A stretch of 64,000 nucleotides of DNA, taken from the NCBI GenBank assembly GCA_934525675.1, contig CAKSZH010000011.1:25173-89172 (forward strand). The letters run 5' to 3'. The position numbers were made by a program, and so were the translations under genes. Positions 434 to 51,328 of the stretch are shown here, piece after piece (positions within the stretch are counted from its first letter, which is position 1; each line of letters starts with the position of its first letter). The DNA is from an uncultured Eubacteriales bacterium. Lineage in GTDB: Bacteria > Bacillota > Clostridia > Oscillospirales > CAG-272. The notes beneath the pieces were generated by a model. It saw only the letters and a list, made by a program, of their open reading frames with translations, made no database searches and was not told the origin of the DNA.

Positions 434-523
434 TGGCGGAGAAGGCGGGGATTGAACCCGCGCGCCGGTTACCCGACCTAACAGTTTAGCAAACTGCCCC
501 CTTAACCACTTGGGTACTTCTCC
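434..523 (-). tRNA. tRNA-Ser (anticodon GCU), class II with long variable arm, CCA encoded
   Basis: Reverse complement: GGAGAAGTACCCAAGTGGTTAAGGGGGCAGTTTGCTAAACTGTTAGGTCGGGTAACCGGCGCGCGGGTTCAATCCCCGCCTTCTCCGCCA. Acceptor stem GGAGAAG/CTTCTCC. Anticodon loop TTGCTAA. T-loop GGTTCAATCC. Long extra arm. Confidence 0.9.
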
Positions 524-5680: not shown

Positions 5681-6940
5681 ATGCAGATGATTTTCAAGGA
5701 TGCCCGTATTTACGAAAACGGCGGATTCACCCGTGGGGACGTAACCGTGACCGACGGTGTTTTGCGCGTTTTCGGGGCGGATACCCCTCATATGAATCAG
5801 GACGGCGGATCGGATACCGCCGTTTTCCGGAATTGTATCATTTTACCCGGCTTTTGCGATGTACACGTACATTTGCGGGAGCCGGGCTTTTCTTACAAGG
5901 AGACCATCGGGACGGGAACTGCCGCCGCCGCGCACGGCGGGTACACGGCGGTGTGTGCCATGCCGAACCTCGACCCCGTGCCGGACAGCCGGGAGCATCT
6001 GGAAAAAGAGCTTGCCCTCATCCGGGAGTCGGCGCACATTCCGGTCTACCCCTACGGCGCGCTGACGGTCGGCGAAAAGGGGGAGATCCCCGCGGCGCTG
6101 GAAGAGCTGTTCCCCGACGTCATCGCGTTCTCGGACGACGGGCGCGGCGTGCAGGACGAGGGGCTCATGCGCGAGCTGATGCGCCGCGTTGCGGCGCTCG
6201 GCGGAATCGTCACGGCGCACTGCGAGGACAACCGCCTGCTTCACGGCGGATACATTCACGACGGGGAGTACGCGCGCCTGCACGGGCATAAGGGGATTCC
6301 CTCCGAGAGCGAATGGCGACCAATTGAGCGCGACCTCCGCCTTGCCCGTGAGACCGGGTGCGCCTACCACGTCTGCCACATCTCCGCAAAGGAGAGCGTT
6401 TCGCTTATCCGCGAAGCAAAGAAGAGCGGCGTGAATGTGACTGCGGAAACCGCGCCGCACTACCTGCTCATGGACGACTCCATGCTGGGGGAGGACGGCA
6501 GATTCAAGATGAACCCGCCGGTGCGGGACAAGAGTGACCGCGAGGCGCTGGTTGCGGGACTGCTTGACGGCACGATCGACATGATCGCCACCGACCATGC
6601 CCCGCATGCAAAAGAGGAAAAGTCGCGTGGGCTTGCGGGCAGCGCGATGGGAATCGTGGGTCTTGAGACCGCGTTCCCGCTGCTTTACACGGGACTTGTC
6701 CGGACGGGAATTCTTCCTGCGGAACGGCTGGTTGAACTCATGGCAATCGCCCCGCGCAAGCGCTTCGGAATCCCGCTGGAGCCGGGCAGCTATTGCGTAT
6801 TTGACACGGAAACGGAATATACGATCGACCCGGAGACGTTTTTGTCACAGGGAAGAGCCACGCCCTTTGCGGGATGGCGGGTACACGGAAAATGTCTTCT
6901 TACGGTATACGGAGGAAAAACGGTATGGCAAACGAAATAA
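5681..6940 (+). CDS. pyrC: Dihydroorotase
   Basis: Internal ATG with RBS (agagga) within track ORF 5348..6940. Motifs DVHVHLREPG and ATDHAPH. Confidence 0.9.
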   Translation: MQMIFKDARIYENGGFTRGDVTVTDGVLRVFGADTPHMNQDGGSDTAVFRNCIILPGFCDVHVHLREPGFSYKETIGTGTAAAAHGGYTAVCAMPNLDPVPDSREHLEKELALIRESAHIPVYPYGALTVGEKGEIPAALEELFPDVIAFSDDGRGVQDEGLMRELMRRVAALGGIVTAHCEDNRLLHGGYIHDGEYARLHGHKGIPSESEWRPIERDLRLARETGCAYHVCHISAKESVSLIREAKKSGVNVTAETAPHYLLMDDSMLGEDGRFKMNPPVRDKSDREALVAGLLDGTIDMIATDHAPHAKEEKSRGLAGSAMGIVGLETAFPLLYTGLVRTGILPAERLVELMAIAPRKRFGIPLEPGSYCVFDTETEYTIDPETFLSQGRATPFAGWRVHGKCLLTVYGGKTVWQTK

Positions 6941-33715: not shown

Positions 33716-33739
33716 ATATCGGTACGTATATATCGATAT
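33716..33739 (+). promoter_or_regulatory. ATATCG-N8-ATATCG direct-repeat operator upstream of adh
   Basis: aaatATATCGgtacgtatATATCGatatg. The same motif occurs at 49320-49339 and 51285-51308. Confidence 0.6.
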
Positions 33740-33752
33740 GCGCGATTTGCAT

Positions 33753-33781
33753 TTTACAACGCCTTCCGACTGTGATAAAAT
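33753..33781 (+). promoter_or_regulatory. Candidate adh promoter
   Basis: TTTACA (33753-33758), 17-nt spacer, TGaTAAAAT (33776-33781). Confidence 0.55.
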
Positions 33782-33814: not shown

Positions 33815-35038
33815 ATGAACATGGCAAGATTTACATTACCGAGAGACCTGTACCACGGAAAGGGCGCTCTGGAAGCGCTCAAAACCTTTGAAGGCAAGCG
33901 CGCAATGATCTGCGTGGGCGGCGGAAGCATGAAGAAGTTCGGTTTCCTGGACCGCGCGGTTGCGTATCTGAAGGAAGCCGGCATGGAAGTCGAGCTGTTT
34001 GAGGGAATTGAGTCCGATCCGTCCGTGGAAACCGTTATGCGCGGTGCGGACGCAATGCTCAAGTTCCAGCCTGACTGGATCATCGCCATGGGCGGCGGTT
34101 CTCCGATCGACGCTGCAAAGGCAATGTGGATCAAGTACGAGTATCCGGAAACCACCTTTGAGGATATGTGCAAGGTGTTCGGTCTTCCCAAGCTCCGCAA
34201 GAAGGCACATTTCTGCGCAATTTCTTCCACCTCCGGCACCGCAACCGAGGTGACCGCGTTCTCCATCATCACCGATTACCACAAGGGAATCAAGTACCCG
34301 ATTGCCGACTTCGAGATCACGCCCGACGTTGCAATCGTTGATCCCGATCTTGCCGAGACCATGCCCAAGAAGCTGGTTGCTCACACCGGTATGGACGCTA
34401 TGACGCACGCGATCGAAGCATATGTTTCCACCGCGAACTGCGACTACACCGACCCGCTTGCCATCTTTGCCATCAAGATGATCCAGAACGATCTGGTGGA
34501 TTCCTACAACGGCGATATGGCAAAGAGAGATGCAATGCACAATGCACAGTGCCTTGCAGGTATGGCGTTCTCCAATGCTCTGCTCGGCATCGTTCACTCC
34601 ATGGCTCATAAGACCGGCGCTGCTTTCGCTGACTACGGTGCTCACATCATCCACGGCGCTGCAAACGCTATGTACCTGCCGAAGGTCATCGCGTTCAACG
34701 CAAAGGACCCCACCGCGAAGAAGCGTTACGGTGTGATTGCCGACTATATGGGTCTCGGCGGAGCGAACGACGACGAGAAGGTGAAACTCCTCATCGCTTA
34801 TCTGCGTAAGATGAACGACGAGTTGAACATTCCTCACTGCATCAAGAACTACGGCGCGGACAGCTATCCGTGCGCCGAGGGCTTTGTGCCGGAGAAGGTG
34901 TTCCTTGAAAGACTTCCCGAGATCGCTAAGAACGCGATTGCCGATGCCTGCACGGGGTCCAACCCGCGTCAGCCCAGCCAGGAAGAGATGGAGAAGCTGC
35001 TCAAGTGCTGCTACTACGACACCGAGGTCGACTTCTGA
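33815..35038 (+). CDS. Iron-containing alcohol dehydrogenase
   Basis: GGGSPIDAAKAMW motif and metal-binding His residues (HTGMDAMTHAIE, HSMAHK). 407 aa. Confidence 0.9.
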   Translation: MNMARFTLPRDLYHGKGALEALKTFEGKRAMICVGGGSMKKFGFLDRAVAYLKEAGMEVELFEGIESDPSVETVMRGADAMLKFQPDWIIAMGGGSPIDAAKAMWIKYEYPETTFEDMCKVFGLPKLRKKAHFCAISSTSGTATEVTAFSIITDYHKGIKYPIADFEITPDVAIVDPDLAETMPKKLVAHTGMDAMTHAIEAYVSTANCDYTDPLAIFAIKMIQNDLVDSYNGDMAKRDAMHNAQCLAGMAFSNALLGIVHSMAHKTGAAFADYGAHIIHGAANAMYLPKVIAFNAKDPTAKKRYGVIADYMGLGGANDDEKVKLLIAYLRKMNDELNIPHCIKNYGADSYPCAEGFVPEKVFLERLPEIAKNAIADACTGSNPRQPSQEEMEKLLKCCYYDTEVDF

Positions 35039-35276
35039 TAAAAGCCGCATTCAGTGCCTGAACCGGGAAATTTCCCGGTAATAGAACCGACGGGGGAGAC
35101 TGTAAAAACGGTCTTCCCCTGTCGTGGGATAAAGGACATTGTCAATGGACAGGAAAATCGGGTGCTTTTCCGGGGAATATTCCCGGCAAATCCATCCGGC
35201 TTGCCTGTTTGTATATTATGAAAAACCGGGACTGTTCGCCGCGGTGTGGCGGATTCCTTCCGGGAAAGGATCAAAA

Positions 35277-36131
35277 ATGTACAGAATTATTGAGAAGACA
35301 CCGCTGAACCCCACGGTGACCAAGATGGTCATCGAGGCACCGGCAGTTGCCAAGAAGGCAGAGCCGGGTCAATTCATCATTCTGCGTACCGACGCGGAAG
35401 GCGAGCGTATCCCGCTGACTGTTGCGGGCTATGACCGCGACGCCGGCACCGTGACGATCATTTTCCAGATCGTCGGCGCAACCACCTACAAGCTCAACCA
35501 GCTGAACGCGGGCGACAGCCTCCACGATTTCGTGGGTCCCCTCGGCAAGCCCACCGAGCTGGAAGGAAAGAAGAAGGTCTGCATTGTCGGCGGCGGCGTC
35601 GGCTGTGCGATTGCACTTCCCATTGCGCAGAAACTGCATGAAATGGGGGCTGAGGTGACTTCCGTCATCGGCTTCCGTTCCAAGGATCTCCTCATTCTGG
35701 AGGACGAATTCCGCGCGGCTTCCAACCGTCTCTTTGTGATGACGGATGACGGCTCTTACGGCAGACACGGCAACGTCTGCGTCCCGCTGAACGAAATGTT
35801 CGCCGAGGGTGAGAAGTTTGACGAGGTCATCACCATCGGTCCTCTGATCATGATGAAGTTCGTCGTTGCCGCAACCAAGCCGACCGGCATTCCCTGCACG
35901 GTTTCCATGAACCCGATCATGATCGACGGAACGGGTATGTGCGGCGGTTGCCGTCTGACCCTGACCGAAGGCGACAAGAAGGTCACCAAGTTTGCCTGCG
36001 TGGACGGCCCCGATTTCAACGGCTATGAAGTCGATTTCGACGAAGCAATGTCCCGCGGGGCCATGTACCGTGATTTTGAGAAGCACGCATACGATGAAGC
36101 GTGCAACCTCTTCAAAAAGGAGGCAAACTGA
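35277..36131 (+). CDS. nfnA: NADH-dependent reduced ferredoxin:NADP+ oxidoreductase subunit A (PyrK-like FAD/[2Fe-2S] protein)
   Basis: Internal ATG with RBS. GGGVGCA nucleotide motif. C-terminal DGTGMCGGCR...C cluster. Paired with a GltD-like subunit. Confidence 0.75.
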   Translation: MYRIIEKTPLNPTVTKMVIEAPAVAKKAEPGQFIILRTDAEGERIPLTVAGYDRDAGTVTIIFQIVGATTYKLNQLNAGDSLHDFVGPLGKPTELEGKKKVCIVGGGVGCAIALPIAQKLHEMGAEVTSVIGFRSKDLLILEDEFRAASNRLFVMTDDGSYGRHGNVCVPLNEMFAEGEKFDEVITIGPLIMMKFVVAATKPTGIPCTVSMNPIMIDGTGMCGGCRLTLTEGDKKVTKFACVDGPDFNGYEVDFDEAMSRGAMYRDFEKHAYDEACNLFKKEAN

Positions 36132-36132
36132 T

Positions 36133-37551
36133 ATGCCGAACATGAGTCTGAAAAAGAATCCGATGCCGACGCAGGAGCCCGAGGTCAGAGCGCATAACTT
36201 CAAGGAAGTTGCACTCGGCTACGCAAAGGACACCGCGCTTGACGAGGCTGCAAGATGCCTGAACTGCAAGAATATGCCCTGTGTTACCGGCTGCCCGGTC
36301 AACATTCACATCCCCGAATTTATCGCAAAGATCAAGGAAGGCGACTTTGAGGGCGCTTACCAGGTGATTTCCAAGAACTCCGCGCTTCCCGCTGTCTGCG
36401 GTCGTGTCTGCCCGCAGGAGACCCAGTGCGAGAGCAAGTGCGTCCGCGGTATCAAGGGCGAGCCTGTCGGTATCGGCAGACTGGAGCGCTTTGTCGCCGA
36501 CTGGCATAACGAACATTCGACCGAGAAGCCGGTCGTCGCTCCCGCAAACGGTCACCGTGTGGCAATCGTTGGTTCCGGTCCTTCCGGTCTGACCTGCGCA
36601 GGCGATCTCGCAAGAAAGGGCTACAAGGTCACCGTGTTTGAAGCGCTGCACACCGCAGGCGGCGTGCTGGTGTACGGTATCCCCGAATTCCGTCTTCCCA
36701 AGGCAATCGTTCAGAAGGAAGTCGATAACCTTTCCGCGATGGGCGTGGATGTTGAGACCAACATGGTCATCGGCAAGACCCTGACCATCGACGAACTGTT
36801 TGAAGACGGTTATGAGGCGGTGTTCATCGGTTCCGGCGCAGGACTTCCCAACTTCATGGGAATCCCCGGCGAAGCATACAAGGGCGTTTACTCCGCGAAC
36901 GAGTTCCTGACCCGTTCCAACCTCATGAAGGCATACCGCGACGATCCCGTCACCCCGATCATGAAGGGCGGCAAGGTCGCTGTCGTCGGCGGCGGTAACG
37001 TCGCAATGGACGCCGCGCGTACCGCGCTCCGTCTGGGTGCCGAGAAGGTATACATTGTCTATCGTCGTTCCGAGGCAGAGCTTCCCGCACGTCGTGAGGA
37101 AGTCGAGCACGCGAAGGAAGAGGGAATTGAGTTCAAGCTGCTCAATAACCCCGTTGAGATTCTCGGCTACAACAATCCCGACGACAAGCGTGACCCGAAG
37201 AACGGTTTCGTGACCGGCATGAAGTGCATCCGCATGGAGCTGGGCGAGCCCGACGCGAAGGGCAGACGCCGTCCTGTTCCGATCGAAGGCAGTGAATTTG
37301 TCCTCGATGTGGATACGGTCGTCATCTCGATCGGTACCTCCCCGAACCCGCTTATCAAGTCCACCACCAAGGGACTGGATGTCAACGCACACGGCGGTAT
37401 CATCGTCGAAGAGGATACCGGCAAGACTTCCCGCGATGCCGTTTACGCAGGCGGTGACGCCGTGACCGGTGCTGCTACGGTTATTTCCGCAATGGGCGCC
37501 GGAAAGGTTGCCGCAAAGGCAATCGACGAGTTCCTCTCGAAGAAGAACTGA
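36133..37551 (+). CDS. nfnB: NfnB / homotetrameric-type glutamate synthase small-chain-like subunit
   Basis: Starts 1 nt after the nfnA stop. Two [4Fe-4S] motifs (CLNCKNMPCVTGCP, CGRVCPQETQCESKC). GSGPSGL and GGGNVAMD dinucleotide motifs. Confidence 0.8.
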   Translation: MPNMSLKKNPMPTQEPEVRAHNFKEVALGYAKDTALDEAARCLNCKNMPCVTGCPVNIHIPEFIAKIKEGDFEGAYQVISKNSALPAVCGRVCPQETQCESKCVRGIKGEPVGIGRLERFVADWHNEHSTEKPVVAPANGHRVAIVGSGPSGLTCAGDLARKGYKVTVFEALHTAGGVLVYGIPEFRLPKAIVQKEVDNLSAMGVDVETNMVIGKTLTIDELFEDGYEAVFIGSGAGLPNFMGIPGEAYKGVYSANEFLTRSNLMKAYRDDPVTPIMKGGKVAVVGGGNVAMDAARTALRLGAEKVYIVYRRSEAELPARREEVEHAKEEGIEFKLLNNPVEILGYNNPDDKRDPKNGFVTGMKCIRMELGEPDAKGRRRPVPIEGSEFVLDVDTVVISIGTSPNPLIKSTTKGLDVNAHGGIIVEEDTGKTSRDAVYAGGDAVTGAATVISAMGAGKVAAKAIDEFLSKKN

Positions 37552-40858: not shown

Positions 40859-42304
40859 TCAGTTGTGCTTGAGAATCCCGATTGCATCGGAAATGCGCTT
40901 CTCGTGCGCGAGCTTTCCGTATTCGTCTACTTCGGCACGGTTCTTCTCTCCGTGCGTCAGGCATCCGGCACCGCCGATACAACCGCCGACGCACGCCATG
41001 CCTTCAATGAAGTTGGCATCCAGCACGCCCTTGGAAAGCCGGAGCAGTGCCATGCGGCATTCCTCAATGCCGTCGCAGGAGACCGGCTTGTAGTCAAATT
41101 CCGTGTCCCCGTGTTCGGCAATCCCTTCGCGTACCGCGTCGGCAAGTCCGCCGCTGCGTGCAAAGATCCGCCCGAAATAGGACGCATTGTCAAGCGAGTT
41201 TTCTTCAAGCGACATAATGTCAATGTCCCGGCTGTCAAAGAGCGCCTGCAATTCCTCGAAGGTGATCACGCTGTCCACGTAAGGGCGCACCTCCGGCTTC
41301 TGAAACTCCATTTTCTTTGCGGTGCAGGGACCGATGAAAACGACACGTGCCTTGTCGTCGGAGGATTTGATGTATTTTGCGATCGCAGCCATCGGAGAGA
41401 GCGTTCCGGAAACCAGATCGGCAAGCGCGGGGAACTGCTTCTTGACATATGCCACGAACGCAGGACAACAGGAGCTGGTCAGCTTACCCTTCTTCACCAG
41501 CTCGCGGGATTCCTCATCCGCAACCATATCCGCGCCGAGCGCCGCTTCCACAACGGTGTGGAACCCGAGCGCCTTGATGCCGGATACTACCTGACCAAGC
41601 TTTGCATAAGTGAACTGACTGGAGATGGACGGCGCGACCACCGCGTATACGCGGGTCCCGGCGGCAGGACTTTTCTTGAGAAGGTCAATGACGTTGAGGA
41701 TGTACGATTTGTCCGAAATGGCACCAAACGGGCACTGGTAAACACAGGCGCCGCAGGAAATGCACTTTTCGTTGTCGATGGATGCGGCGCTGTCGGCGTT
41801 GACCGAGATCGCCTTGACCTTACAGGAGCTGACGCAGGGACGCTTGAAATTCATGATCGCGCTGTACGGACAGACCTTGGCGCACGCGCCGCACTCCACG
41901 CATTTGGTTTTGTCGATGTGGGCGACGTGGTTTTCGTCGAGCGTGATCGCTCCGCGGCGGCAGACATCCTCACAGCGGTGTGCAAGACAGCCGCGGCAGG
42001 CGTTGGTCACCTCGTAGCCGCCCATCGGGCATTCGTCGCAGGCGATGTCGATGACCTCGATGACATTGGGGTTTTCCTTGTTTCCGCCCATGGCGAGCTT
42101 GACGCGCTCTCCGAGAATCGCACGCTCCTTGTAGACACAGCAACGCATGGTCGGCACCTTGCCGGGGGCAATGATCTTGGGAATGTCCGTCACCTTTTCA
42201 AGCAGCGTTCCGTTCCAGGTGCATCTTGCAACCTCGCGGAGCACCTTGTATTTGAGATGCTGGACTTTGGTATCGAATTTTCTCAGCTTCGGGGTATCCT
42301 GCAT
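40859..42304 (-). CDS. [FeFe]-hydrogenase with canonical H-cluster motifs and N-terminal multi-[4Fe-4S] region
   Basis: L1 TSSCCPAF, L2 GPCTAKKME, L3 EGMACVGGCIGG. Ferredoxin motifs CVECGACAKVCP and CISCGACVYQCP. Confidence 0.85.
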   Translation of the reverse strand: MQDTPKLRKFDTKVQHLKYKVLREVARCTWNGTLLEKVTDIPKIIAPGKVPTMRCCVYKERAILGERVKLAMGGNKENPNVIEVIDIACDECPMGGYEVTNACRGCLAHRCEDVCRRGAITLDENHVAHIDKTKCVECGACAKVCPYSAIMNFKRPCVSSCKVKAISVNADSAASIDNEKCISCGACVYQCPFGAISDKSYILNVIDLLKKSPAAGTRVYAVVAPSISSQFTYAKLGQVVSGIKALGFHTVVEAALGADMVADEESRELVKKGKLTSSCCPAFVAYVKKQFPALADLVSGTLSPMAAIAKYIKSSDDKARVVFIGPCTAKKMEFQKPEVRPYVDSVITFEELQALFDSRDIDIMSLEENSLDNASYFGRIFARSGGLADAVREGIAEHGDTEFDYKPVSCDGIEECRMALLRLSKGVLDANFIEGMACVGGCIGGAGCLTHGEKNRAEVDEYGKLAHEKRISDAIGILKHN

Positions 42305-42313
42305 ATTGACTCC

Positions 42314-43495
42314 TTAAAAATAACTGACCTTGACGCGCTTTCCCATTTTGGTAAGGCAATCGGAAAGCTCGGTGACAAGCTGCATTTTGATGTTGAAATT
42401 GATGGGCAGATCGGGGTTCTGGTGCGCCGGGTTGATGGCTCTGCCCACGAAGAAATTGATGTCGGTCGCTTCCTCAAAGAGAAGCCGCGCGATCATGGAC
42501 GCGCCGTCCCGCTTGAAGCTCCATTGCTCGTAGCTCTTGTTGTCGGCGAGGTAATCCTTGGCGTACTCCAGGACGCGGTTGATTGTGATGACGCCCTCCG
42601 TGACCAGATCGACGCCCTCCAGCGTCGCGGTCGGCGGGATGCCCTTGTCCTCGAAATCAAGGCTCGGAATGAGCGGCTTGTTCAGGTACTTTGCGGCAAT
42701 GGACGAGGTGGTTCCGCCGCAGACGATGTGCTTGCCTTCCTTGGAAAAGAACAGTGCCATCATCTTGTTGCAATCGTCGCGGTGGGAGGGCGGACCGAAG
42801 AGAATGTTCATCGGCTCTCTCTTGCGGATCCGCACCATGCACGCGGTCGCGTCGTCGCCGGGGTGTTTGCCGTAGAGCTTGTTTACCTCGTCGATGAAGA
42901 TGGTGGACAGCGTTTTGGCGGTGTACCCGACCCCTTCAAAGGTGCCGAGAAATTCGATGATGTCCTCTCTCTTCCAGCCGAAATTGTAGGTCACGCCGAT
43001 TCCCGCGTGGGGACAGCCGTCGCTCATCAGCACAAAGAGATCATTTTCCCGGAGCGGGAGGACGGATTTGTAGATCTTTTTTCCGCCGATGCTGATCTCG
43101 GTCCTCGGATAATCGTAATTTGCGCCGTCCCGGAACAGAATGACCTGCGGATTGTCGTACTGCATCAGCTCCGCCTCGGTACTGTCGGGGGAAATGTGCA
43201 GAACGGTGAAGGTCGAATAGGCAACTCCGCGTACCGAACAGACCGGGAGCGTAGCCGCGATGGTGGATACGCAGTCCTCCAGCGCCAGCCCCTCCGCCAT
43301 CATGGTGGAGATGATCTTGGCGGTCAGGGTGGACAGGATGCTTGCCTTGACCCCGCTTCCGAGCCCGTCGGCAAGCACGACGACGGTGGAGCCGTCCTCC
43401 GCCGCTGCCACGTCGATGTGATCCCCGCAGAGCACCTCGCCGTCGTGGTTGATGCTCTTGTAGCCGATGTCGGCGCAGAAGTTATTCATCATCAT
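42314..43495 (-). CDS. PP2C/SpoIIE-family serine phosphatase
   Basis: GDHIDV...VVVLADGLGSGVKASI... Overlaps the hydS stop by 14 nt. 9 nt before the downstream hydrogenase start. Confidence 0.85.
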   Translation of the reverse strand: MMMNNFCADIGYKSINHDGEVLCGDHIDVAAAEDGSTVVVLADGLGSGVKASILSTLTAKIISTMMAEGLALEDCVSTIAATLPVCSVRGVAYSTFTVLHISPDSTEAELMQYDNPQVILFRDGANYDYPRTEISIGGKKIYKSVLPLRENDLFVLMSDGCPHAGIGVTYNFGWKREDIIEFLGTFEGVGYTAKTLSTIFIDEVNKLYGKHPGDDATACMVRIRKREPMNILFGPPSHRDDCNKMMALFFSKEGKHIVCGGTTSSIAAKYLNKPLIPSLDFEDKGIPPTATLEGVDLVTEGVITINRVLEYAKDYLADNKSYEQWSFKRDGASMIARLLFEEATDINFFVGRAINPAHQNPDLPINFNIKMQLVTELSDCLTKMGKRVKVSYF

Positions 43496-45179
43496 TGGTG
43501 GACTCCTTGAGCTTGGTCAGGGCGATCTTGGTCTCCGCGGCGGTTTCGCCGAGCAGGGATGCGATCTCCTGTACGATGCGCATCTGCTTTTCCACCACGC
43601 GGTCAGCGGTCTCCACCGTCTGGCGGCGGAGATTCTCCTTCTTTTCGCGCGCCTCCTGCTCGTCGGTCACGTCGCGGAGCGTGCAGAGCAACGTGTGATC
43701 GTCGCGGCTGCGCGTGATGGTCATGACCACGTAGCGTCCGTATTCCGCAAGATAGGTGCGGCGGTCGAAAATGCCGCGCCCGGTGTTCTCCACCTGCACG
43801 AAATCCTTGGGGTCAAGGATGCGGTTGACCGGCTCGCCGAGCACATCGGATGCCGAGCGGAGGTTGAGGATTTTGCGCGCGGCAAGGTTGATCTGCTGGA
43901 CCTCCAGGTCACCGTTGATGACGAGAATACCGTCTGGACTGTTATTCAGAATGTTGTCCGAAAAGCTCTCGGCACGGCGGGTCAGATACGGCATACACAT
44001 GGACGGATCGGCTTTCCCGCGGAATACCGCAATTGCCTTTTCCCGGCAGGTGTCGTAGCCGCAGGAGCCGCAGTTGAGCTCGTCCTCGGGGCGGCTCTTG
44101 CCCATTTTGAGAAGGATTTGCTTCAGCTCCTCCTCGGTTGGGAGCGTTTCGGAACGATACAGATCCGTCATGGGCTTGCGGAGCGCAGAGGGGAAGGGCT
44201 GCTCCACGGGGAAATCCTCCTCTCCCGTATAACGGCTGACCGCAATGTACTCCTCTACCGGCTTGCGGTGATATTTTTCCATCACAGGTCCGCCGACACA
44301 GCTTCCGTAGCAGGCGGACAGCTCGATCATGCAGTGGTGCACCTTTCCGCTTATCACGTCGCGGAGTACCGCAATGCAGTTCTCGGTGCCGTCCACGGCA
44401 AGATAGGTATAGTCGCTCAGCCGCTCGGTCAGTGAGCGCAGAACGCCGCCAGTCGTCGGAAAGCTGCGTGCTCTGCCGGTCCTCTCCCGCTTTTCGGGTG
44501 CGCCGTCTGCGGGGGACTCCGGGAGCGCAATGTGTTCTGCCTCCAGCCACCTGGACAATTGCTCAAAGGTCAGCACTGCGTCCACAAGGTCGCCGCAGGT
44601 TGCTGCTTCATCCTTTTTCGCAACGCAGGGACCGATGAACACGGTCTTCGCGCCGGGAATCCGCTCCTTGATGTCGCGGCAGTGTGCCTGCATCGGGGAG
44701 AGCACGTCCGCAAGGTAGGGAAGTGCTTCCGGGAAATGCTTTTCGATGAGCAGATTGACCGCGTGACAGCAGGAAGTCAGCAGAATGTCGCGGTGTTCCT
44801 CGCGGAGGATGCGCTCGTATTCCCGTTTGACAAAGGTAGCGCCGACGGCGGTCTCCTCCACGCCGGCAAAGCCGAGCTTTGTGAGTGCCCCGCGCATGGC
44901 TTCAATGGTCAGCCCGTTGTAGTTGGCAACAAAGGACGGCGCAAGGCTGACATATACCGGATCCCCGGACTGAATCAGCACACGCACCTTTTCGGTCTCG
45001 TCCCCGATCTGCTTTGCCCCTTGCGGGCAGACCACGAAGCACTGTCCGCAGAGGATACAGTCCTCGGGGACGATGTGCGCCTGGTTGCCGGAAAACCGGA
45101 TCGACTTGACGGGGCAGTGGCGGATGCATTTATAACAATTCTTGCAGTTGGATTTCTTGAGGCTGAGACATTCAGTCAT
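43482..45179 (-). CDS. hydS: Sensory-type [FeFe]-hydrogenase homolog with C-terminal 4-Cys motif and PAS domain
   Basis: N-terminal CKNCYKCIRHCP/CILCGQCFVVCP. Degenerate H-cluster motifs TSCCHA, GPCVAKKDE, ELSACYGSCVGG. CGSCGYDTC then a PAS-like region (NSPDGILVINGDLEVQQINLAARKIL). ATG at 45179 preferred; the track start at 45209 is TTG. Confidence 0.85.
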   Translation of the reverse strand: MTECLSLKKSNCKNCYKCIRHCPVKSIRFSGNQAHIVPEDCILCGQCFVVCPQGAKQIGDETEKVRVLIQSGDPVYVSLAPSFVANYNGLTIEAMRGALTKLGFAGVEETAVGATFVKREYERILREEHRDILLTSCCHAVNLLIEKHFPEALPYLADVLSPMQAHCRDIKERIPGAKTVFIGPCVAKKDEAATCGDLVDAVLTFEQLSRWLEAEHIALPESPADGAPEKRERTGRARSFPTTGGVLRSLTERLSDYTYLAVDGTENCIAVLRDVISGKVHHCMIELSACYGSCVGGPVMEKYHRKPVEEYIAVSRYTGEEDFPVEQPFPSALRKPMTDLYRSETLPTEEELKQILLKMGKSRPEDELNCGSCGYDTCREKAIAVFRGKADPSMCMPYLTRRAESFSDNILNNSPDGILVINGDLEVQQINLAARKILNLRSASDVLGEPVNRILDPKDFVQVENTGRGIFDRRTYLAEYGRYVVMTITRSRDDHTLLCTLRDVTDEQEAREKKENLRRQTVETADRVVEKQMRIVQEIASLLGETAAETKIALTKLKESTNDDE

Positions 45180-45441
45180 AAGTACTCTCCCCCCGGAGTT
45201 TTTCAACAATATGTGCCCGGAAAAATTCCCGGAAGTTTTCCGGCGTGATGCCGGTCACGATTTCACCATCCACACGGAGGTTGACACCGTTCCGGTTACA
45301 GGCACCGAGGCACAGGCAGCCGATGAGGTCCACCTCGTCGGTCAGTCCTTCCTTGTCCAGTGCCTCGCGGAACAGCCGGATGATCTCCTCGGAGCCTTTG
45401 ATATAACAGGAGCTTCCGACACAAATCTCCACCTGAATCAT
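45172..45441 (-). CDS. Thioredoxin-like [2Fe-2S] ferredoxin-domain protein
   Basis: VCVGSSCYIKGS...CLCLGACNRNG four-Cys pattern. Tandem paralog of 45438..45689. Confidence 0.7.
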   Translation of the reverse strand: MIQVEICVGSSCYIKGSEEIIRLFREALDKEGLTDEVDLIGCLCLGACNRNGVNLRVDGEIVTGITPENFREFFRAHIVEKLRGESTYD

Positions 45442-45689
45442 ACGCCGGCATCCAGCTTTCCGAGGATTTCTTTGGTAAAGAAGTCGTCCACCGTATCCGG
45501 CGAGACGGAATAGGTTTCACCGTCCACCGTGACGTTGACGCCGGTCCGGCATTGTCCCATACAGAAGGTTCCGGCAAGCTCCACGCGATCCTTGAGATGG
45601 TTTTCTGAGATCAGGTAACGAAGGGTCTCCACGATCTGGCGGGAGCCCTTGAGGTGGCAGGAACTGCCGATGCATACCGTAATTTTCAT
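45438..45689 (-). CDS. Thioredoxin-like [2Fe-2S] ferredoxin-domain protein
   Basis: VCIGSSCHLKGS...FCMGQCRTG four-Cys pattern. ATGA overlap with the next gene. Confidence 0.7.
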   Translation of the reverse strand: MKITVCIGSSCHLKGSRQIVETLRYLISENHLKDRVELAGTFCMGQCRTGVNVTVDGETYSVSPDTVDDFFTKEILGKLDAGV

Positions 45690-45833
45690 GGTGTTTTCCT
45701 TTCATGTTGCGTTTTATGCGGTCTGACCGGGACGTTTTTGCGGCATGGAGACGGAAAACCCGGCACCTGATTTTCTGTATTGCGCAGGGAGAACCCCGTA
45801 CCTCCCGGCGCGGGGTTCTTGAAAGAACTTGGA

Positions 45834-46583
45834 TTATTCGTAATCGACGACATTGACCCAGGAGAGCAAGAACTGTCTTTCCTCGGGCTTGCCCTTGACG
45901 GACTGGGAAGCCGCAACGATCGGCATCCAGCTCTGGACGTACTTTTTGGCGGTTCCGCTCTTTTTGCAGAAGAGTTCGAGGTAAGCATTCGCGCCCTCCA
46001 TATCGCCGGAGAGCCAGAAGAGCAGGTAGGTACGCGCGACATCTGCCGAGGCGTTGCCCTGTGTGGCGTGCGACCAGTCGAGGATGTAGGACGTGCCGTC
46101 CGGCGTGATGATGATATTGGACGGATTGAAGTCCCCGTGGCAGAGCTTGTTGTGGCGCGGCATGGATTCCAGCCGCGTGTGCAGGTCGTACCGCGTGGTC
46201 GCATCGAGGTCTGCCTCGCAGATCTTGCGATCCATCTTGTCCTTGAGCTTTTTCAGATCGGGAGCGGTCTTTTTGTGCATCTCCATCTGAAGGTCCACAA
46301 ACAGTTCCAGATACTCCGCTTTCTTGTCGGGATTCTCCTGCATGAGCTGTGCGAGCGTCTTGCCGGGAATGTACTCGGACGTGATCGCCCACTTGCCGTC
46401 GGGTTTGGAAACCTCCAGCACCTTGGGAATGTGCAGCCCGGTCTCCTCGACCAACGCCTGATTGAGTGCCTCGTTGAGGATTCCCGCCTTGGAGTAATCC
46501 TCGTCAAACACCTTGATGACGCGGTCGCCGTCCAGATAAACGGTCTTGGAGGTCCGCACCGCAAGGATCTTGTCTGCTTCCAT
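45834..46583 (-). CDS. Aminoglycoside-phosphotransferase (APH)/choline-kinase-fold protein kinase-like protein
   Basis: Catalytic loop LCHGDFNPSNIII and DWSHA. ATG at 46583 preceded by AAGGAGGAG, only 20 nt after the adhE stop. Confidence 0.75.
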   Translation of the reverse strand: MEADKILAVRTSKTVYLDGDRVIKVFDEDYSKAGILNEALNQALVEETGLHIPKVLEVSKPDGKWAITSEYIPGKTLAQLMQENPDKKAEYLELFVDLQMEMHKKTAPDLKKLKDKMDRKICEADLDATTRYDLHTRLESMPRHNKLCHGDFNPSNIIITPDGTSYILDWSHATQGNASADVARTYLLFWLSGDMEGANAYLELFCKKSGTAKKYVQSWMPIVAASQSVKGKPEERQFLLSWVNVVDYE

Positions 46584-46603: not shown

Positions 46604-49231
46604 TCATACGTTCTTGTGTTCGCCGGTATAGGCGTTCAGATACATCTGTTTAATTTCGGAAATGAGCGGGTAACGCGGGTTTGCCCCGGTGCACTGGTCA
46701 TCGAATGCCTGCTCGCTCATAGCGTCCAGACGCGCCATGAAGTCGGCTTCGTCGGGGACGTAATCGCGGATGGTCGGCTTGATGCCGATGCGCGCCTTGA
46801 GCTCGTCGATCTTTGCAATGAGACCTTCCAGCTTTTCTTCGTCGGTCTTGCCCTTGACGCCGAGTGCCGTAGCGATCTCTGCGTAACGTGCAAGCGTGTG
46901 CGGATGATCGTACTGCGAGAAGGTGCCCATCTTGGTGGGAGCCTCTGCGGAGTTGAAGCGGAGCACCTCATCCATCATGAGAGCATTGGCAATGCCGTGC
47001 GGGATGTGGTGGAATGCGCCGAGCTTGTGCGCCATGGAGTGCATGACGCCGAGGAACGCGTTTGCGAATGCCATACCTGCCATGGTAGCGGCGTTTGCCA
47101 TCTTTTCTCTTGCCACGGGGTCGGGCGTACCGGTGACGGCGCTGTCGTATGCACGGGGCAGGTATTCAAAGATGACCTGCAGCGCACGGATCGCAAGTCC
47201 GTCGGTGTAGTCGGTCGCCATGACCGAAGCGTATGCTTCGAGCGCGTGGGAAACGGCATCGATGCCGGAAGCGGAGGTCAGTCCCTTCGGCGCGTTCATC
47301 ATCATGTCCGCGTCAACGATTGCCATATCGGGCATCAGCTCGTAGTCGGCAAGCGGGTACTTGATGCCGGTCTTCTCGTCGGTGATGACGGCGAACGGCG
47401 TGACCTCGGAGCCGGTGCCGGCAGAAGTCGGGACGGCGATGAAGTATGCCTTCTCTCCCATGTGCGGGAAGGTGTAGACTCTCTTGCGGATGTCGATGAA
47501 GCGCATTGCCATATCCGCAAAATCCGCTTCGGGATGCTCATAAAGCACCCACATGATCTTTGCCGCGTCCATTGCGGAGCCGCCGCCGACGGCAATAATG
47601 ACGTCGGGAGCGAAGGCGGTCATCTGACGTGCGCCCTCTCTTGCGCAGGCAAGTGTCGGGTCGGGGGCAACGTCGGAGAAGGTGGTGTGCAGGATTCCCA
47701 TGGAATCGAGCTTTTCCTCCACCACACGGGTGTAGCCGTTCTGATACAGGAAGGAGTCGGTGACGATGAACGCCTTTTTCTTGTGCATGACGGTGCCGAG
47801 CTCGTCGAGCGCGACGGGCAGACAGCCCTTCTTCTGATACACCTTTTCGGGTGCGCGGAACCAAAGCATATTTTCTCTCCTTTCGGCAACCGTCTTGATA
47901 TTGAGCAGGTGCTTGACACCGACGTTTTCGGAAACGCTGTTACCGCCCCAGCTTCCGCAACCGAGCGTCAGGGAAGGGGTCATCTTGAAGTTGTACAGGT
48001 CGCCGATGCCGCCGTGCGAGGAGGGCGTGTTGACGAGAATGCGGCAGGTCTTCATGCGTTCCGCGAACTCATCGAGGATGGGCTTCGCGGTCACGGGGTT
48101 GAGGTAAATGGAAGAGGTGTGTCCGTAGCCGCCGTCGGCGATCAGATGCTCTGCCTTACCGAATGCGTCCTGAATATCTTTTGCGTGGTACATTGCAAGC
48201 ACCGGGGACAGCTTTTCATGCGCGAATTCCTCGGTGATTTCCACGCTTTCGACTTCGCCGATCAGGATCTTTGCGGTTTCGGGAACCGTCACGCCTGCAA
48301 GCGCGGCGATCTTGTGCGCGGGCTGACCGACGATCTTTGCGTTGAGCGAACCGTTGATGAGAATGGTCTTGCGGACCTTCTCGGTTTCCTCGGGGGAGAG
48401 GAAGTAACAGCCGCGGTAGGAAAATTCCTTCTTGACCGCCTTGTAAATGCTGTCGAGCACGATCACCGATTGCTCGGAGGCACAGATCATGCCGTTGTCA
48501 AAGGTCTTGGAGTGGATGATGGAGTTGACGGCGAGCGTGATGTCTGCGCTCTCGTCGATGATGGCGGGCGTGTTGCCTGCGCCGACACCGAGAGCGGGCT
48601 TGCCGCTGGAGTATGCCGCCTTGACCATGCCGGGACCGCCGGTCGCTAAAATGATGTCCGCTTCCTTCATCAGCGTGTTGGTCATATCCAGGGACGGAAC
48701 GTCGATCCAGCCGATGATTCCCTCGGGTGCGCCTGCCTTGACTGCGGCTTCGAGTACCACTTTTGCCGCTTCAATGGTGGATTTCTTTGCGCGGGGGTGA
48801 GGGCTGATGATGATGGCGTTGCGCGTCTTGAGCGCGATCAGCGTCTTGAAGATGGCGGTAGAGGTCGGGTTGGTCGTCGGGATGACCGCGGCAATGACGC
48901 CGATCGGCTCTGCGACCTTTTCCTCGCCGTAAATGGGGTCTTTTTCGATGACTCCGCAGGTCTTGGTGTTCTTATATGCATTGTAAATATATTCGGAAGC
49001 GTAGTTATTTTTGATGACCTTGTCTTCCACAACGCCCATTCCGGTCTCTTCCACCGCGAGCTTTGCGAGCGGGAGACGCGCCTGGTTTGCGGCGATTGCC
49101 GCCGCCTTGAAGATAGCATCTACCTGTTCCTGAGTGTAGTGCGCGTATATCTCCTCCGCCGCGCGGGTACGCGCAAGCAGAGCTTCCAGCGTTTCGGGGC
49201 TGTCGGTGATGGGATACTTCTGATTCTCCAT
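46604..49231 (-). CDS. adhE: Bifunctional acetaldehyde-CoA/alcohol dehydrogenase
   Basis: N-terminal ALDH domain plus C-terminal Fe-ADH domain (GGGSAMDAAKIMW, HSMAHKLG). ATG at 49231 has a GGAGGA RBS; the track start is 49246. Confidence 0.93.
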   Translation of the reverse strand: MENQKYPITDSPETLEALLARTRAAEEIYAHYTQEQVDAIFKAAAIAANQARLPLAKLAVEETGMGVVEDKVIKNNYASEYIYNAYKNTKTCGVIEKDPIYGEEKVAEPIGVIAAVIPTTNPTSTAIFKTLIALKTRNAIIISPHPRAKKSTIEAAKVVLEAAVKAGAPEGIIGWIDVPSLDMTNTLMKEADIILATGGPGMVKAAYSSGKPALGVGAGNTPAIIDESADITLAVNSIIHSKTFDNGMICASEQSVIVLDSIYKAVKKEFSYRGCYFLSPEETEKVRKTILINGSLNAKIVGQPAHKIAALAGVTVPETAKILIGEVESVEITEEFAHEKLSPVLAMYHAKDIQDAFGKAEHLIADGGYGHTSSIYLNPVTAKPILDEFAERMKTCRILVNTPSSHGGIGDLYNFKMTPSLTLGCGSWGGNSVSENVGVKHLLNIKTVAERRENMLWFRAPEKVYQKKGCLPVALDELGTVMHKKKAFIVTDSFLYQNGYTRVVEEKLDSMGILHTTFSDVAPDPTLACAREGARQMTAFAPDVIIAVGGGSAMDAAKIMWVLYEHPEADFADMAMRFIDIRKRVYTFPHMGEKAYFIAVPTSAGTGSEVTPFAVITDEKTGIKYPLADYELMPDMAIVDADMMMNAPKGLTSASGIDAVSHALEAYASVMATDYTDGLAIRALQVIFEYLPRAYDSAVTGTPDPVAREKMANAATMAGMAFANAFLGVMHSMAHKLGAFHHIPHGIANALMMDEVLRFNSAEAPTKMGTFSQYDHPHTLARYAEIATALGVKGKTDEEKLEGLIAKIDELKARIGIKPTIRDYVPDEADFMARLDAMSEQAFDDQCTGANPRYPLISEIKQMYLNAYTGEHKNV

Positions 49232-49273
49232 GATTCGTTCCTCCATGTCTGTTGGGTCTATTGGCTTGTTATA

Positions 49274-49302
49274 ATTTTAACACACTTCCCGCACGAACAC
49301 AA
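49274..49302 (-). promoter_or_regulatory. Candidate adhE promoter
   Basis: Minus strand: TTGTGT (49297-49302), 17-nt spacer, TGtTAAAAT (49274-49279). Confidence 0.55.
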
Positions 49303-49319
49303 CTATGGAAATTACATAA

Positions 49320-49339
49320 CGATATATCTTTATCGATAT
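49320..49339 (-). promoter_or_regulatory. ATATCG-N8-ATATCG direct-repeat operator upstream of adhE
   Basis: The minus strand reads ccctATATCGataaagatATATCGttatg. The proximal repeat is 17 nt from the -35 hexamer, as at adh. Confidence 0.6.
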
Positions 49340-49547
49340 AGGGGAGTTTTTCCCAATTGGCAACCCGTAGCGCCCTCCGCCTGTTATGCGGGGGAGTGCG
49401 GGGAATTCCGCAACCGATCTGCGGTTGTTTTTTGTTGTGTTCGGTCGTGTCCGCAACCGGACCCGTGGTCACGCTTGTCACGGCGCGGCGGACGATGTTT
49501 CGCGGTCGTGTCCGGCGGTGTGTATTGGCGGGGGATCCCGCCGCGTG

Positions 49548-50477
49548 TCAGCCGCCGAGTACCTCGCGCTTGTATGCGGTCAGGCTGTCGATAAATTGGC
49601 AGTCGAGGTCGGTCAGGCGGTAATTTTTACGGTAAATCAGTACGTCGCGGTAGACCTTGTGGTCGTCTTCGCAGGGACGTGTGACCAGATGGTGCTGTTC
49701 CAGAATTCTTTTCGGAATCGGGGAGACCCACATAAACGCGTCGGGCAATTGTTCGAGCAGACCGAACTGACTTCCACGTTCAAATACGAAAATGTGTTTG
49801 TCCACGTATTCCGAAAGCTCGCTCTTGCGCGCCTCGCTTTGCGGCAGATTCGGTACAAACGGGTCACCGTGTGCGATCTCCGTCATGCCGGCAAGTTCCT
49901 CCGAGCGGAAGGATTTCTTTCCCGAAAGCGGGTTCTTTTCCGACATCAGCGCCACGTGCGAAAACTCACAGATCAGTTCGGATGCAAGCCCCTTTTCCGC
50001 AAGCATTGCCTTGAAATAACGGTCGTAGGCGGATTGATAGCGGATGATGCCGATCCGGTAACCGGCTTCCACAATGTTGTTGATGGCGCGCAGGGAATTG
50101 GTTTCCCGATAGAGCAGCTCCATGCGCTCGCTGCCGGATACCGATTTCACGAAATCCGTGAACGCACAGGAAATATAGGTCGCGCGCGGCACCGATGCGG
50201 AAAACAGCTGGGTGTTGGCGCGTTCGCCCTTGTACATCCGTTCCATGGCGTCCACCTGGGAGAGAATGGAGCGGGCATATCCGAGAAATTCCTCGCCTTC
50301 CTCGGTCGGGACGATTCCCTTGGAGGTACGCTTGAAGATCTTGATTCCCAGTTCTTCTTCCAGATCCTTGATGGCGCGGCTGAGGTTGGGTTGACCCATA
50401 TAGAGCGCCTCGGCGGCTTTGGTGATGGAAGTGGTTTTTGCAACCTCCACCGCATACTTCAGGTATAACAGATTCAT
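49548..50477 (-). CDS. LysR-family transcriptional regulator
   Basis: N-terminal HTH MNLLYLKYAVEVAKTTSITKAAEALYMGQPNLSRAIKDLEEELG. 309 aa. Confidence 0.85.
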   Translation of the reverse strand: MNLLYLKYAVEVAKTTSITKAAEALYMGQPNLSRAIKDLEEELGIKIFKRTSKGIVPTEEGEEFLGYARSILSQVDAMERMYKGERANTQLFSASVPRATYISCAFTDFVKSVSGSERMELLYRETNSLRAINNIVEAGYRIGIIRYQSAYDRYFKAMLAEKGLASELICEFSHVALMSEKNPLSGKKSFRSEELAGMTEIAHGDPFVPNLPQSEARKSELSEYVDKHIFVFERGSQFGLLEQLPDAFMWVSPIPKRILEQHHLVTRPCEDDHKVYRDVLIYRKNYRLTDLDCQFIDSLTAYKREVLGG

Positions 50478-50605: not shown

Positions 50606-51223
50606 TCAGCGGACGTATTTGGACAGGATTGCGAGAGAGGATGCGAGGTTCTCGTTTTCCACGGCGACCCCGTCGGGGACCCGCAGAATGACGGGCGCAA
50701 AGTTCCAGATTGCCCGGATGCCGCATCCGGCAAGGCGGTCGGCAATGGGCTGTGCCGCGGGGGCGGGAACAGTCAGAATGGCAAGGCGGATGTTCTCCTC
50801 CCGGCAGAAGTTCTCCAGCTGTTCCATGGCAAGCACGGGTTTGTCGGCGAAGCGTTTGCCGACAAGCTCCGGCGAGAAATCAAACGCGGCGCAGATGTCG
50901 AAGCCGTAGTCGAGGAAACCGCCGTAGCAGAGCAGTGCCTGACCGAGATGCCCGGCACCGATCAGCACCGTTTTGGTCATGCGGTCACAGCCGAGACAGG
51001 CTTCGATCTGGGGGATCAGTTCTTCGATGACATAGCCGGTTTTGGGTCTGCCGCTTCCGCTGACCGCCCCGAGGTCCTTCCGGACCTGGACATCGCCGAG
51101 TCCGAATACTTTCGCAAGCGTTGTGGCGGAAATGGTTTCCTGCTCTTCGCGGATTGTGCGCAGGTAGTGCAGGTAGATCGGCAGTCGCCTCAGCGTTTTC
51201 GGTGAAATATTCGCGTTTCCCAT
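50606..51223 (-). CDS. rex: Redox-sensing transcriptional repressor Rex
   Basis: ISPKTLRRLPIYLHYL winged helix, Rossmann motif VLIGAGHLGQAL, 205 aa. Confidence 0.9.
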   Translation of the reverse strand: MGNANISPKTLRRLPIYLHYLRTIREEQETISATTLAKVFGLGDVQVRKDLGAVSGSGRPKTGYVIEELIPQIEACLGCDRMTKTVLIGAGHLGQALLCYGGFLDYGFDICAAFDFSPELVGKRFADKPVLAMEQLENFCREENIRLAILTVPAPAAQPIADRLAGCGIRAIWNFAPVILRVPDGVAVENENLASSLAILSKYVR

Positions 51224-51256: not shown

Positions 51257-51308
51257 ATTCTACCATGCGCAGGGAACGGGGACAATATCGATTTATCAAT
51301 ATCGATAT
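51257..51308 (-). promoter_or_regulatory. Candidate rex promoter with an overlapping ATATCG-N8-ATATCGATAT operator
   Basis: Minus strand: ATCGATATtgataaATCGATATTGTCC, 17 nt, then TGgTAGAAT (-10 at 51257-51262). The plus strand reads gacaATATCGatttatcaATATCGatatg (51285-51308). Confidence 0.55.
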
Positions 51309-51328
51309 GTATTTATAGATATGATGCT

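Follow-up and report, generated by a model that had tools for sequence, protein, structure and literature searches.

The question raised by this locus is which protein recognises a repeated ATATCG motif that stands in front of three transcription units within a 64-kb stretch of contig CAKSZH010000011.1 from an uncultured Eubacteriales bacterium, a stretch referred to here, at its full length, as the window. The motif is found upstream of adh, adhE and rex, and the identities of these genes (an iron-containing alcohol dehydrogenase, the bifunctional aldehyde/alcohol dehydrogenase AdhE and a Rex protein, with a LysR-type regulator encoded between the last two) had been guessed from the letters alone and agree with domain and family searches. 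Is the motif the site of the LysR-type regulator or that of an atypical Rex, the two candidate binders put forward in the sequence-only reading, and how does it relate to the operator already known for Rex? The answer favoured by sequence comparison and by analogy with known Rex-DNA contacts, to which a probability of roughly 0.65 is given, is that the element is the operator of the adhE- and hfs-linked Rex paralog of the Rex_1799 type and not that of LysR.

The repeated ATATCG motif is a real and widely conserved DNA control site. Within the window the pattern ATATCG-N8-ATATCG has exactly three matches, upstream of adh, adhE and rex, against none in 100 dinucleotide-preserving shuffles used as a control and an expectation of 0, and the three sites (aaatATATCGgtacgtatATATCGatatg at adh on the plus strand, ccctATATCGataaagatATATCGttatg at adhE on the minus strand and gacaATATCGatttatcaATATCGatatg in the rex region as read on the plus strand) were recovered with the sequences and coordinates first reported for them. 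A repeat finder called the 14-bp direct repeat independently at all three sites, with an interrupted inverted repeat also at adh and rex and only short overlapping palindromes at adhE. The full element is a 24-mer, ATATCGATAT-N4-ATATCGATAT (ATATCGATATTTGCATATCGATAT when written out in full), which is readable as a direct or as an inverted repeat. The proximal unit is palindromic, fully or nearly so (ATATCGATAT at adh and at rex, ATATCGTTAT at adhE), and the distal unit is degenerate, so that the direct repeat can equally well be called an inverted one, ATATCGAT-N8-ATCGATAT. The candidate adh operator (33716..33739, plus strand) reads ATATCGGTAC-gtat-ATATCGATAT, with its dyad about -60.5 from the predicted start site, and the candidate adhE operator (49316..49339, minus strand) reads ATATCGATAA-agat-ATATCGTTAT on its own strand. 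The third, a candidate rex(-lysR) operator of three units (51285..51322, minus strand), reads ATATCTATAA-atac-ATATCGATAT-tgat-AAATCGATAT, that is ATATCT-N8-ATATCG-N8-AAATCG on the rex coding strand; here the repeat and its coordinates stood, but the pair had been given on the plus strand, which is antisense to the minus-strand rex. TCGATAT-N4-ATATCGA is contained in the 24-mer at all three window sites and at 60 non-redundant sites.

Conservation was followed in two samples, namely 80 genome loci fetched around, and hence selected by, LysR orthologs, and 120 loci returned by a metagenome scan with the exact 24-mer as query, which is blind to genes. The element is kept in dozens of Clostridia loci. 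In about half of the 80 genome loci the next genes downstream of lysR, in the same orientation, are adhE, rex-adhE or adh, the spacer downstream of lysR carries ATATCGATA(T)-N4-ATATCGATAT in at least 20 of them, and the element is also present in loci L201-L208. Counted column by column, 60 non-redundant sites give the nearly invariant consensus ATATCGATAt-nnnn-ATATCGATAT, and the primary sequence is kept across phyla, for instance in Elusimicrobium (L201). Among the 120 metagenome loci, 67 have a Rex, LysR, AdhE or Adh homolog beside the motif (Rex in 55 and LysR in 54), 34 are without all four homologs and are mostly simple ATATCG repeats or short contigs, and 19 form an unrelated high-GC class. 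A literature search (with the motif string, with LysR and adhE, and with Clo1313_1799/Cthe_0422) found no description of an ATATCG operator.

The units are reiterated two to four times at a period of 14 bp, which in two lineages (L034, L035 and L051; L068, L072, L074 and L077) is 15 bp, with a spacer of 5 nt. At the 15-bp-period loci the second unit is often ATACCGATAT, the distance from the proximal unit to the -35 being unchanged and the distal unit shifted by 1 bp. A variant with a truncated last unit, ATATCGATAAT(G/A)(A/T)TATATCGAA(A/T)AT, is found at L056:6940-6963, L002:7002-7025 and L016:2844-2867; that of L056 lies 205 bp upstream of a second, complete operator, and operator pairs 205-253 bp apart are also seen in L188, L206 and L208.

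The placement of the element relative to the promoter falls into two kinds. At adh the proximal ATATCG is followed by 17 nt, TTTACA, 17 nt and TG-n-TAAAAT (predicted promoter 33753..33781, plus strand, with 10/12 matches and the TG in a promoter scan), and at adhE by 17 nt, the weak -35 TTGTGT, 17 nt and TG-n-TAAAAT (predicted promoter 49274..49302, minus strand); the adhE promoter was not called by the scan because its -35 matches at only 3/6 positions, and its position is kept in orthologous promoters. The identical spacing and TG-TAAAAT -10 claimed for adh and adhE are thus correct by sequence, but they do not extend to the predicted rex promoter (TTGTCC, 17 nt and TG-n-TAGAAT at 51257..51285 on the minus strand, from the promoter scan), where the dyad of the best pair (51285-51308) lies near -46.5 and the pair adjoins and overlaps the -35 (TTGTCC-17-TAGAAT) rather than lying 17 nt upstream of it, with a weaker second pair at -60.5. 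When the best sigma70-like promoter was sought near 61 non-redundant near-perfect sites, all start sites being predicted, the -10 was found to begin exactly 40 nt past the proximal ATATCG in 27 sites, window adh and adhE included, and 41 nt past it in two more, a spacing that puts the N4 dyad at about -60.5. The activator-like position upstream of the -35 that had been noticed at adh and adhE is therefore upheld as a fixed distance, shared by 29 of the 61 sites. The promoters with a -60.5 dyad, of which there are at least 29, serve adhE, adh, nfnAB or rex-adhE and share a conserved T-run and a (T)ATTTCACA(A) segment. In the second placement the element lies inside or just after the core promoter, as in TTGACA-17-TATAAT with a -10 formed by the inter-unit spacer, and this is usual, not universal, at rex genes that head an operon (L085, L103, L126, L132, L188 and others). 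The window rex promoter is of this promoter-overlapping kind. Repressor-type overlap with the core promoter is seen at window rex, L085, L103, L126, L132, L203 and L204 and not at adh, adhE and 27 further promoters.

What, then, is known of the Rex protein encoded beside these sites? The window rex gene (50606..51223, minus strand) encodes a member of the Rex_1799/Cthe_0422 subfamily and not a canonical Rex. The protein has both Rex domains of Pfam (PF06971, the winged-helix N-terminal domain, and PF02629, the CoA-binding/Rossmann domain), scores 239 bits against NCBIfam NF003994 (cut-off 130) and shares 50% identity, from end to end, with C. thermocellum Rex_1799 (Cthe_0422), with 205 bits as against 143 bits for T. 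ethanolicus Rex. The recognition helix VQVRKDL is kept, and the wing GAVSGSGRPKTGY stands in place of the SYFGxFGxxGxGY of structurally characterised Rex proteins. The sequence of Rex_1799 (PMC8457756, supplementary file 2) has the same wing signature, and nearly all of 65 non-redundant Rex homologs (L001-L202 plus the window) combine VQVRKDL with a wing of the form xVSxxG(K/R)P(K/R)xGY. C. thermocellum has two Rex paralogs, Rex_2471 and Rex_1799 (Hebdon et al. 2021, PMC8457756), the first of which is canonical and autoregulated, with the motif TTGTTAANNNNTTAACAA obtained by DNA affinity purification sequencing (DAP-seq) and electrophoretic mobility shift assay, and the second of which lies beside adhE and the hfs genes, is 34-36% identical to characterised Rex proteins and has no motif reported (PMC8457756). 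A search of the literature likewise found no DNA motif or binding site for a Rex_1799-type paralog. The elements, for their part, sit at rex, adhE, adh, nfnAB and hydrogenase clusters in the window and related loci, which is the classical Rex regulon.

The assignment also draws on the fit of the element to Rex-DNA geometry. In the complex of T. maritima Rex with its operator, distances being counted from the dyad, Arg48 reads the G at 6.5 bp and Lys49 those bases that lie at 4.5 and 3.5 bp; T4 and T3, at 7.5 and 8.5 bp, are read in the minor groove by Arg60 and Gly61 of the wing (PMC8836258). In an alignment Arg48 and Lys49 are kept in the window Rex and the Rex_1799 type, and Arg60-Gly61 is replaced by Pro-Lys. 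Read about its N4 centre the motif gives T-C-G-A-T-A-T against the clostridial T-T-G-T-T-A-A, with the same 6-N4-6 geometry and the G at +/-7; it keeps the G at 6.5, the T at 4.5 (as in the clostridial TTGTTAA) and the A at 3.5, and the base at 7.5 (T4) is changed from T to C. The arms TCGATAT and TTGTTAA match at four of seven positions (T-9, G-7, T-5 and A-4), and the canonical arm sequence as such is not present. The statement that the motif does not resemble the canonical Rex box consequently holds for the sequence and fails for the geometry. By analogy, the altered part of the protein, its wing, would correspond to the altered part of the site. A Rex dyad placed at the CG of each unit was rejected, since the base 6.5 bp away would fall in the unconserved spacer.

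The canonical Rex box is TTGTGAA-W4-TTCACAA, with a spacer of 4 nt (PMC2883068) and not of the 6 nt given in the sequence-only reading, and a canonical form of it is TTGTTAAAATATTAACAA. A canonical-pattern search of the window finds only one separate box, at 49266-49283, and none at the ATATCG elements. This near-canonical clostridial box (GTGTTAAAATTATAACAA on the minus strand) overlaps the adhE -10, whose TG-TAAAAT is embedded in it, and presumably serves a canonical Rex whose gene lies outside the window. The two kinds of site share one promoter, with the canonical box over the -10, at window adhE and in L084, L112, L163, L183, L196, L012 and L026, and L026 has in addition a hybrid site, ATATCGTTAAAAATATAACGATAT, that is intermediate between the two motif types. 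Such co-occurrence, together with the activator-like position, was the ground for an initial leaning towards LysR, which was changed by the wing signature, the paper on the two paralogs and the loci that have no lysR. That a promoter shared with a canonical box assigns the motif to LysR was an argument dropped because two differing Rex paralogs coexist in C. thermocellum; the co-occurring boxes are explained by two paralogs each with its own site, and they no longer argue for LysR. As a separate observation, the adh promoters of L184 (~2270-2290) and L127 have no canonical Rex box and carry over the -10 a perfect 14-bp palindrome, GCTATTATAATAGC (GCTATGATAATAGC in L127), whose arm-N4-arm layout is like that of a Rex box and which may be a third operator type.

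The LysR-family regulator encoded at 49548..50477 on the minus strand, of which Pfam recognises the HTH_1 domain only, is nonetheless the rival that survives best. LysR-type transcriptional regulators (LTTRs) use a recognition site near -65 and an activation site near -35, with a T-N11-A core. On such a scheme LysR would bind the ATATCG units, activating adh, adhE and rex-adhE from about -61 and repressing rex-lysR, and Rex would bind only canonical TGTTAA-N4-TTAACA. Orthologs of the window LysR, at 53-67% identity, occur in many Oscillospirales and related Clostridia, and in the Oscillospirales lysR is the conserved genomic neighbour of the operator, lying directly upstream of it in most loci, with adhE, adh or rex next in that half of the LysR-selected sample already described. 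The 54 motif-selected loci with lysR point the same way, as do the canonical Rex boxes that coexist with the motif in the same promoters and the palindrome that LysR-only loci keep at the proximal-unit position, and the -60.5 dyad at targets with core-promoter overlap at rex-lysR is the usual LTTR pattern of activating the target and repressing the self. One trait of an LTTR site, centring near -65, is indeed seen, in that the dyad lies at about -60.5 in 29 promoters (predicted starts).

A second trait, co-occurrence with the LysR gene, breaks down: the operator is perfect at rex paralog promoters without a nearby lysR in L203, L204, L124, L184, L185, L127, L206 and L208. At rex_1799 in C. thermocellum (L203) and in Acetivibrio cellulolyticus (L204) there is no LysR gene upstream or elsewhere at the locus, and the operator is present. 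In L203 the promoter TTGACT-17-TAAAAT is followed at once by ATATCGATAA, ATATCGATAA, ATACCGATAA and ATATCGATAT at a 14-bp period, four units at 5860-5911, and in L204 TTGACT-17-TATAAT is followed by three units. The other six loci (L124, L184, L185 and L127 from metagenomes, L206 and L208 from Herbinix-type genomes) have rex and the motif with no lysR within several kb. The C. thermocellum transcription factor catalogue holds one LTTR, Clo1313_1684, which matches the window LysR in the helix-turn-helix (HTH) only, at 35% over 68 residues, and is not its ortholog. Conversely, where a locus has lysR and lacks rex, the palindromes at that place form a heterogeneous and degenerate set, in spite of an invariant recognition helix (QPNLSRA) in LysR. 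No 15-bp T-N11-A dyad fits the conserved columns of the 24-mer, and no conserved LysR box was evident by eye upstream of lysR genes with their own promoter (70 of 111 non-redundant regions). Covariation of the LysR HTH with operator type was tried and was uninformative, the recognition helix being invariant across the family. LysR as the binder is thus unlikely, and of the two proteins first named the atypical Rex is favoured and LysR disfavoured, with the operator kept at the paralog promoter where lysR is absent.

Could both proteins be used? The Rex paralog might occupy the 24-mer and LysR an overlapping or adjacent site, in the T-rich tract or the -35-proximal TATATTT/CATTTCACA, with redox gating LysR activation through anti- or co-activation. 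Consistent with this, at least 29 promoters combine the -60.5 architecture with the T-run and (T)ATTTCACA(A), lysR and the rex paralog are very often adjacent or in one operon, and C. thermocellum and A. cellulolyticus, which have no lysR at the locus, show the promoter-overlapping placement only. The -60.5 architecture is also found, however, with no lysR within 6 kb (L206, L208, L084 and L184), many of the -35 hexamers are already good (TTCACA/TTTACA, 5/6) so that an activator is not obviously needed, and no separate LysR box can be defined; such joint use is accordingly quite improbable.

The least probable explanation, a LacI-type or other small dimeric factor encoded elsewhere and acting on each 10-14-bp palindrome with a central CG, or else a mainly structural role as a terminator hairpin, can draw on the palindromic form and central CpG of every unit, the 14- or 15-bp spacing, the palindrome pair upstream of a LacI-family gene in high-GC metagenome contigs and the strong hairpin with U-run formed by units and flanks after the lysR stop in many loci (-20.6 kcal/mol, z = -7.2, in L018), but, for all that the unit GCATATCGATATGC has the form of a LacI operator, the surroundings of the clostridial sites have no conserved regulator gene of LacI or any other such type, the window copies fold at only -5 to -8.3 kcal/mol (z = -0.8 to -1.7 against shuffled sequence) with no U-run, the adh and adhE copies lie upstream of the predicted promoters and are probably not transcribed, and the primary sequence is conserved across phyla, for instance in Elusimicrobium, as that of a pure terminator would not be. 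An RNA element or terminator at the window copies was rejected by these folding controls, and Rfam has no match at the sites.

Two sets of observations belong beside this explanation. At L018:6936-6978, and likewise in L010, L016, L020, L023, L045 and L054, the units and flanks (for example AAACGC...GCGTTT) give a perfect hairpin with a 16-bp stem and a T-run directly after the lysR stop; the flanks covary between loci, and the operator doubles there as the lysR terminator. The high-GC class, mostly of 60-70% G+C, comprises L082, L086, L093, L102, L105, L107, L118, L121, L129, L130, L135, L146, L148, L155, L157, L162, L164, L168 and L176. Its element, which contains the exact 24-mer, is TGATATCGATATC-NN-GATATCGATATCA, often within a perfect palindrome of about 40 bp, and in at least 17 of these 19 loci lies 40-220 bp upstream of a LacI-family gene (MADLAELAGVSKITVSRAL...). 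The LacI-family regulator is probably the protein that uses this element as its operator, and the clostridial system has no relation to it.

Returning to the Rex_1799-type paralog as the binder, how might it act? Binding by Rex, the mode of binding, the sign of regulation and any NADH dependence are inferred here by analogy. A Rex dimer would sit on the dyad in the N4 spacer of ATATCGATAT-N4-ATATCGATAT, each recognition helix, with its Arg-Lys, reading TCGATAT with the G 6.5 bp from the dyad as in TTGTTAA and TTGTGAA, and the more basic wing (K/R-P-K/R) lying over the outer ATAT. Extra units at the 14-bp period would be alternative or additional sites, and the palindromic form of the units would be useful if they are shared between adjacent sites in arrays of three or four. 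Where rex heads the operon, as in the window rex-lysR, an array over the -35, the -10 or the start site would fit autorepression. At adh(-nfnAB), adhE(-hfs) and rex-adhE the dyad would lie at -60.5 upstream of a separate promoter, sometimes with a canonical box for the canonical Rex, and from that position class-I activation, UP-element interference or interference with the LysR protein would all be possible. A more elaborate version of the same idea, of rather low probability, makes the paralog a dual regulator that activates adhE, adh-nfnAB and rex-adhE in class-I fashion from -60.5, or gates LysR, and that represses its own gene from the overlapping copies; its activity might also be set by the HydS/kinase/PP2C module, and the operator would then be the end-point of an H2-sensing pathway that switches between hydrogen and ethanol.

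Several points weigh against the Rex assignment. LysR is linked to the motif as often as Rex in the metagenome sample (54 versus 55 loci), and for C. thermocellum it is a published list of transcription factors and a 12-kb locus that show no member of the LysR family. The fixed -60.5 position at adh and adhE is unusual for a Rex repressor and just as typical of the recognition sites of LTTRs. A model of one dimer does not require units that are palindromes in themselves, centred on CG, the 15-bp period of two lineages should be poorly tolerated by one rigid dimer straddling both units, and the same palindrome is linked to a LacI-family gene in unrelated high-GC bacteria. Finally, the DAP-seq work on C. 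thermocellum, which as far as is stated included Rex_1799 among its transcription factors, reports no motif for this protein (PMC8457756).

The genes behind the three window operators, which front rex-lysR, adhE-hfs and adh-nfnAB, complete the picture of the locus. The adh gene (33815..35038, plus strand), whose true start by comparison with homologs is probably the ATG at 33821 (MARFTLPRD), is followed by NfnAB-like genes at 35139-37551. The adhE gene (46604..49246, minus strand) is followed by an hfs/HydS sensory cluster (40859..46392, minus strand) that encodes a 2Fe-2S thioredoxin-like protein, a HydS-type [FeFe] hydrogenase with a PAS domain, a SpoIIE-type PP2C phosphatase and a second [FeFe] hydrogenase; the open reading frame in the kinase position, 45517-46392, has no Pfam match, and its counterparts in L201-L204 match APH/RIO1 kinase families. 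The cluster also lies beside this Rex paralog in L201-L204 and L207, and in R. albus and C. thermocellum it has been discussed as a possible hydrogen-sensing pathway acting on ethanol formation (PMC5707799).

Some further observations concern the window and the paralog. The 200-bp G+C-rich spacer between lysR and the adhE operator has a terminator-like hairpin with a T-run at 49408-49428 on the plus strand, with no plus-strand gene evident upstream, and a tRNA gene at 437-523 (minus strand) is the only Rfam match in the window. Two Rex_1799-type genes per locus are found in L205 (Oscillospiraceae bacterium MB08-C2-2), L112 and L187, one heading a rex-lysR operon and the other lying behind an operator within nfnAB-rex or rex-adhE units. 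A mutant of C. thermocellum ATCC 27405 tolerant of Populus hydrolysate has a non-synonymous change in codon 54 of Cthe_0422, right after VRKDL at the start of the wing, and a T-to-G change 12 nt before the Cthe_0422 start, which its authors link to maintained rex-adhE expression (PMC3804516 supplement); the upstream mutation was considered as support for the operator and rejected, as it lies near the ribosome-binding site and outside the operator.

What would such an operator mean? A second, divergent Rex beside adhE and a putative hydrogen-sensing hydrogenase/kinase/phosphatase module is found in C. thermocellum, R. albus and many gut Oscillospirales, and how this module controls the division between ethanol and hydrogen is a question that concerns biofuel research as well as rumen and gut microbiology (PMC5707799, PMC8457756). 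If the assignment is right, the element is a candidate DNA target for the Rex paralog of ethanol- and hydrogen-producing gut and cellulose-degrading bacteria. Among Rex-family operators it would be new in its shifted sequence, in its tie to a divergent subfamily of Rex and in the unusual, fixed upstream position that it takes at its targets, and the paralog would have shifted operator specificity through its wing with the recognition helix kept. It may further exemplify a Rex acting from an activator-type position. With the 24-bp operator and its two architectures in hand the regulon of the paralog becomes predictable across genomes, and metabolic engineers gain a cis element.

Set against known systems, the element has in its unit the form of the operators of the LacI family, palindromes of 14-18 bp with a central CG beside a LacI gene, but in Clostridia there is no LacI linkage and only the unrelated high-GC class has one. 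Class I sites such as those of CRP/FNR at -61.5 are alike in being dimer-sized palindromes with a dyad fixed about 61 bp upstream in many unrelated promoters, the starts here being predicted, and no Rex protein is known to activate transcription. LysR-type sites are alike in the AT-rich dyad some 60-65 bp upstream of the start site and in the LysR gene beside the regulated gene; they are unlike in that a 15-bp T-N11-A dyad is lacking here, that lysR is co-directional and upstream rather than divergent, and that the site persists without lysR.

The canonical Rex operator (TTGTGAA-N4-TTCACAA, in Clostridia TTGTTAA-N4-TTAACAA) is a site for Rex repressors that sense NAD+/NADH, among them S. aureus Rex, T. 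maritima Rex and Rex_2471. The two share arms of 6-7 nt, a 4-nt spacer, G/C at +/-7 and T/A at -5/-4, both front rex, adhE, adh, nfnAB and hydrogenase genes with core-promoter overlap at rex, and both have as neighbour a protein with the two Rex Pfam domains and the Arg-Lys of the recognition helix. The ATATCG element differs at three of seven arm positions, in the conservation of a 24-mer with palindromic arms, in its two to four units at 14 bp (15 bp in two lineages) and in target sites fixed near -60.5 rather than over the -10/-35, and its candidate cognate protein has Pro-Lys in the wing for the Arg-Gly that reads the minor groove. A further close system is the Rex_1799 locus of C. thermocellum, where the paralog is co-transcribed with adhE and adjoins the hfs genes for HydS, kinase and phosphatase, a cluster of the same kind being found in R. 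albus. There rex-adhE is one operon, with the array just downstream of the -10 and no lysR, whereas in the window lysR comes after rex, and adhE stands behind a promoter of its own; the two loci are nevertheless alike in a Rex of 50% identity with the same wing, in an adhE/2Fe-2S/HydS-PAS/PP2C neighbourhood and in the same operator units.

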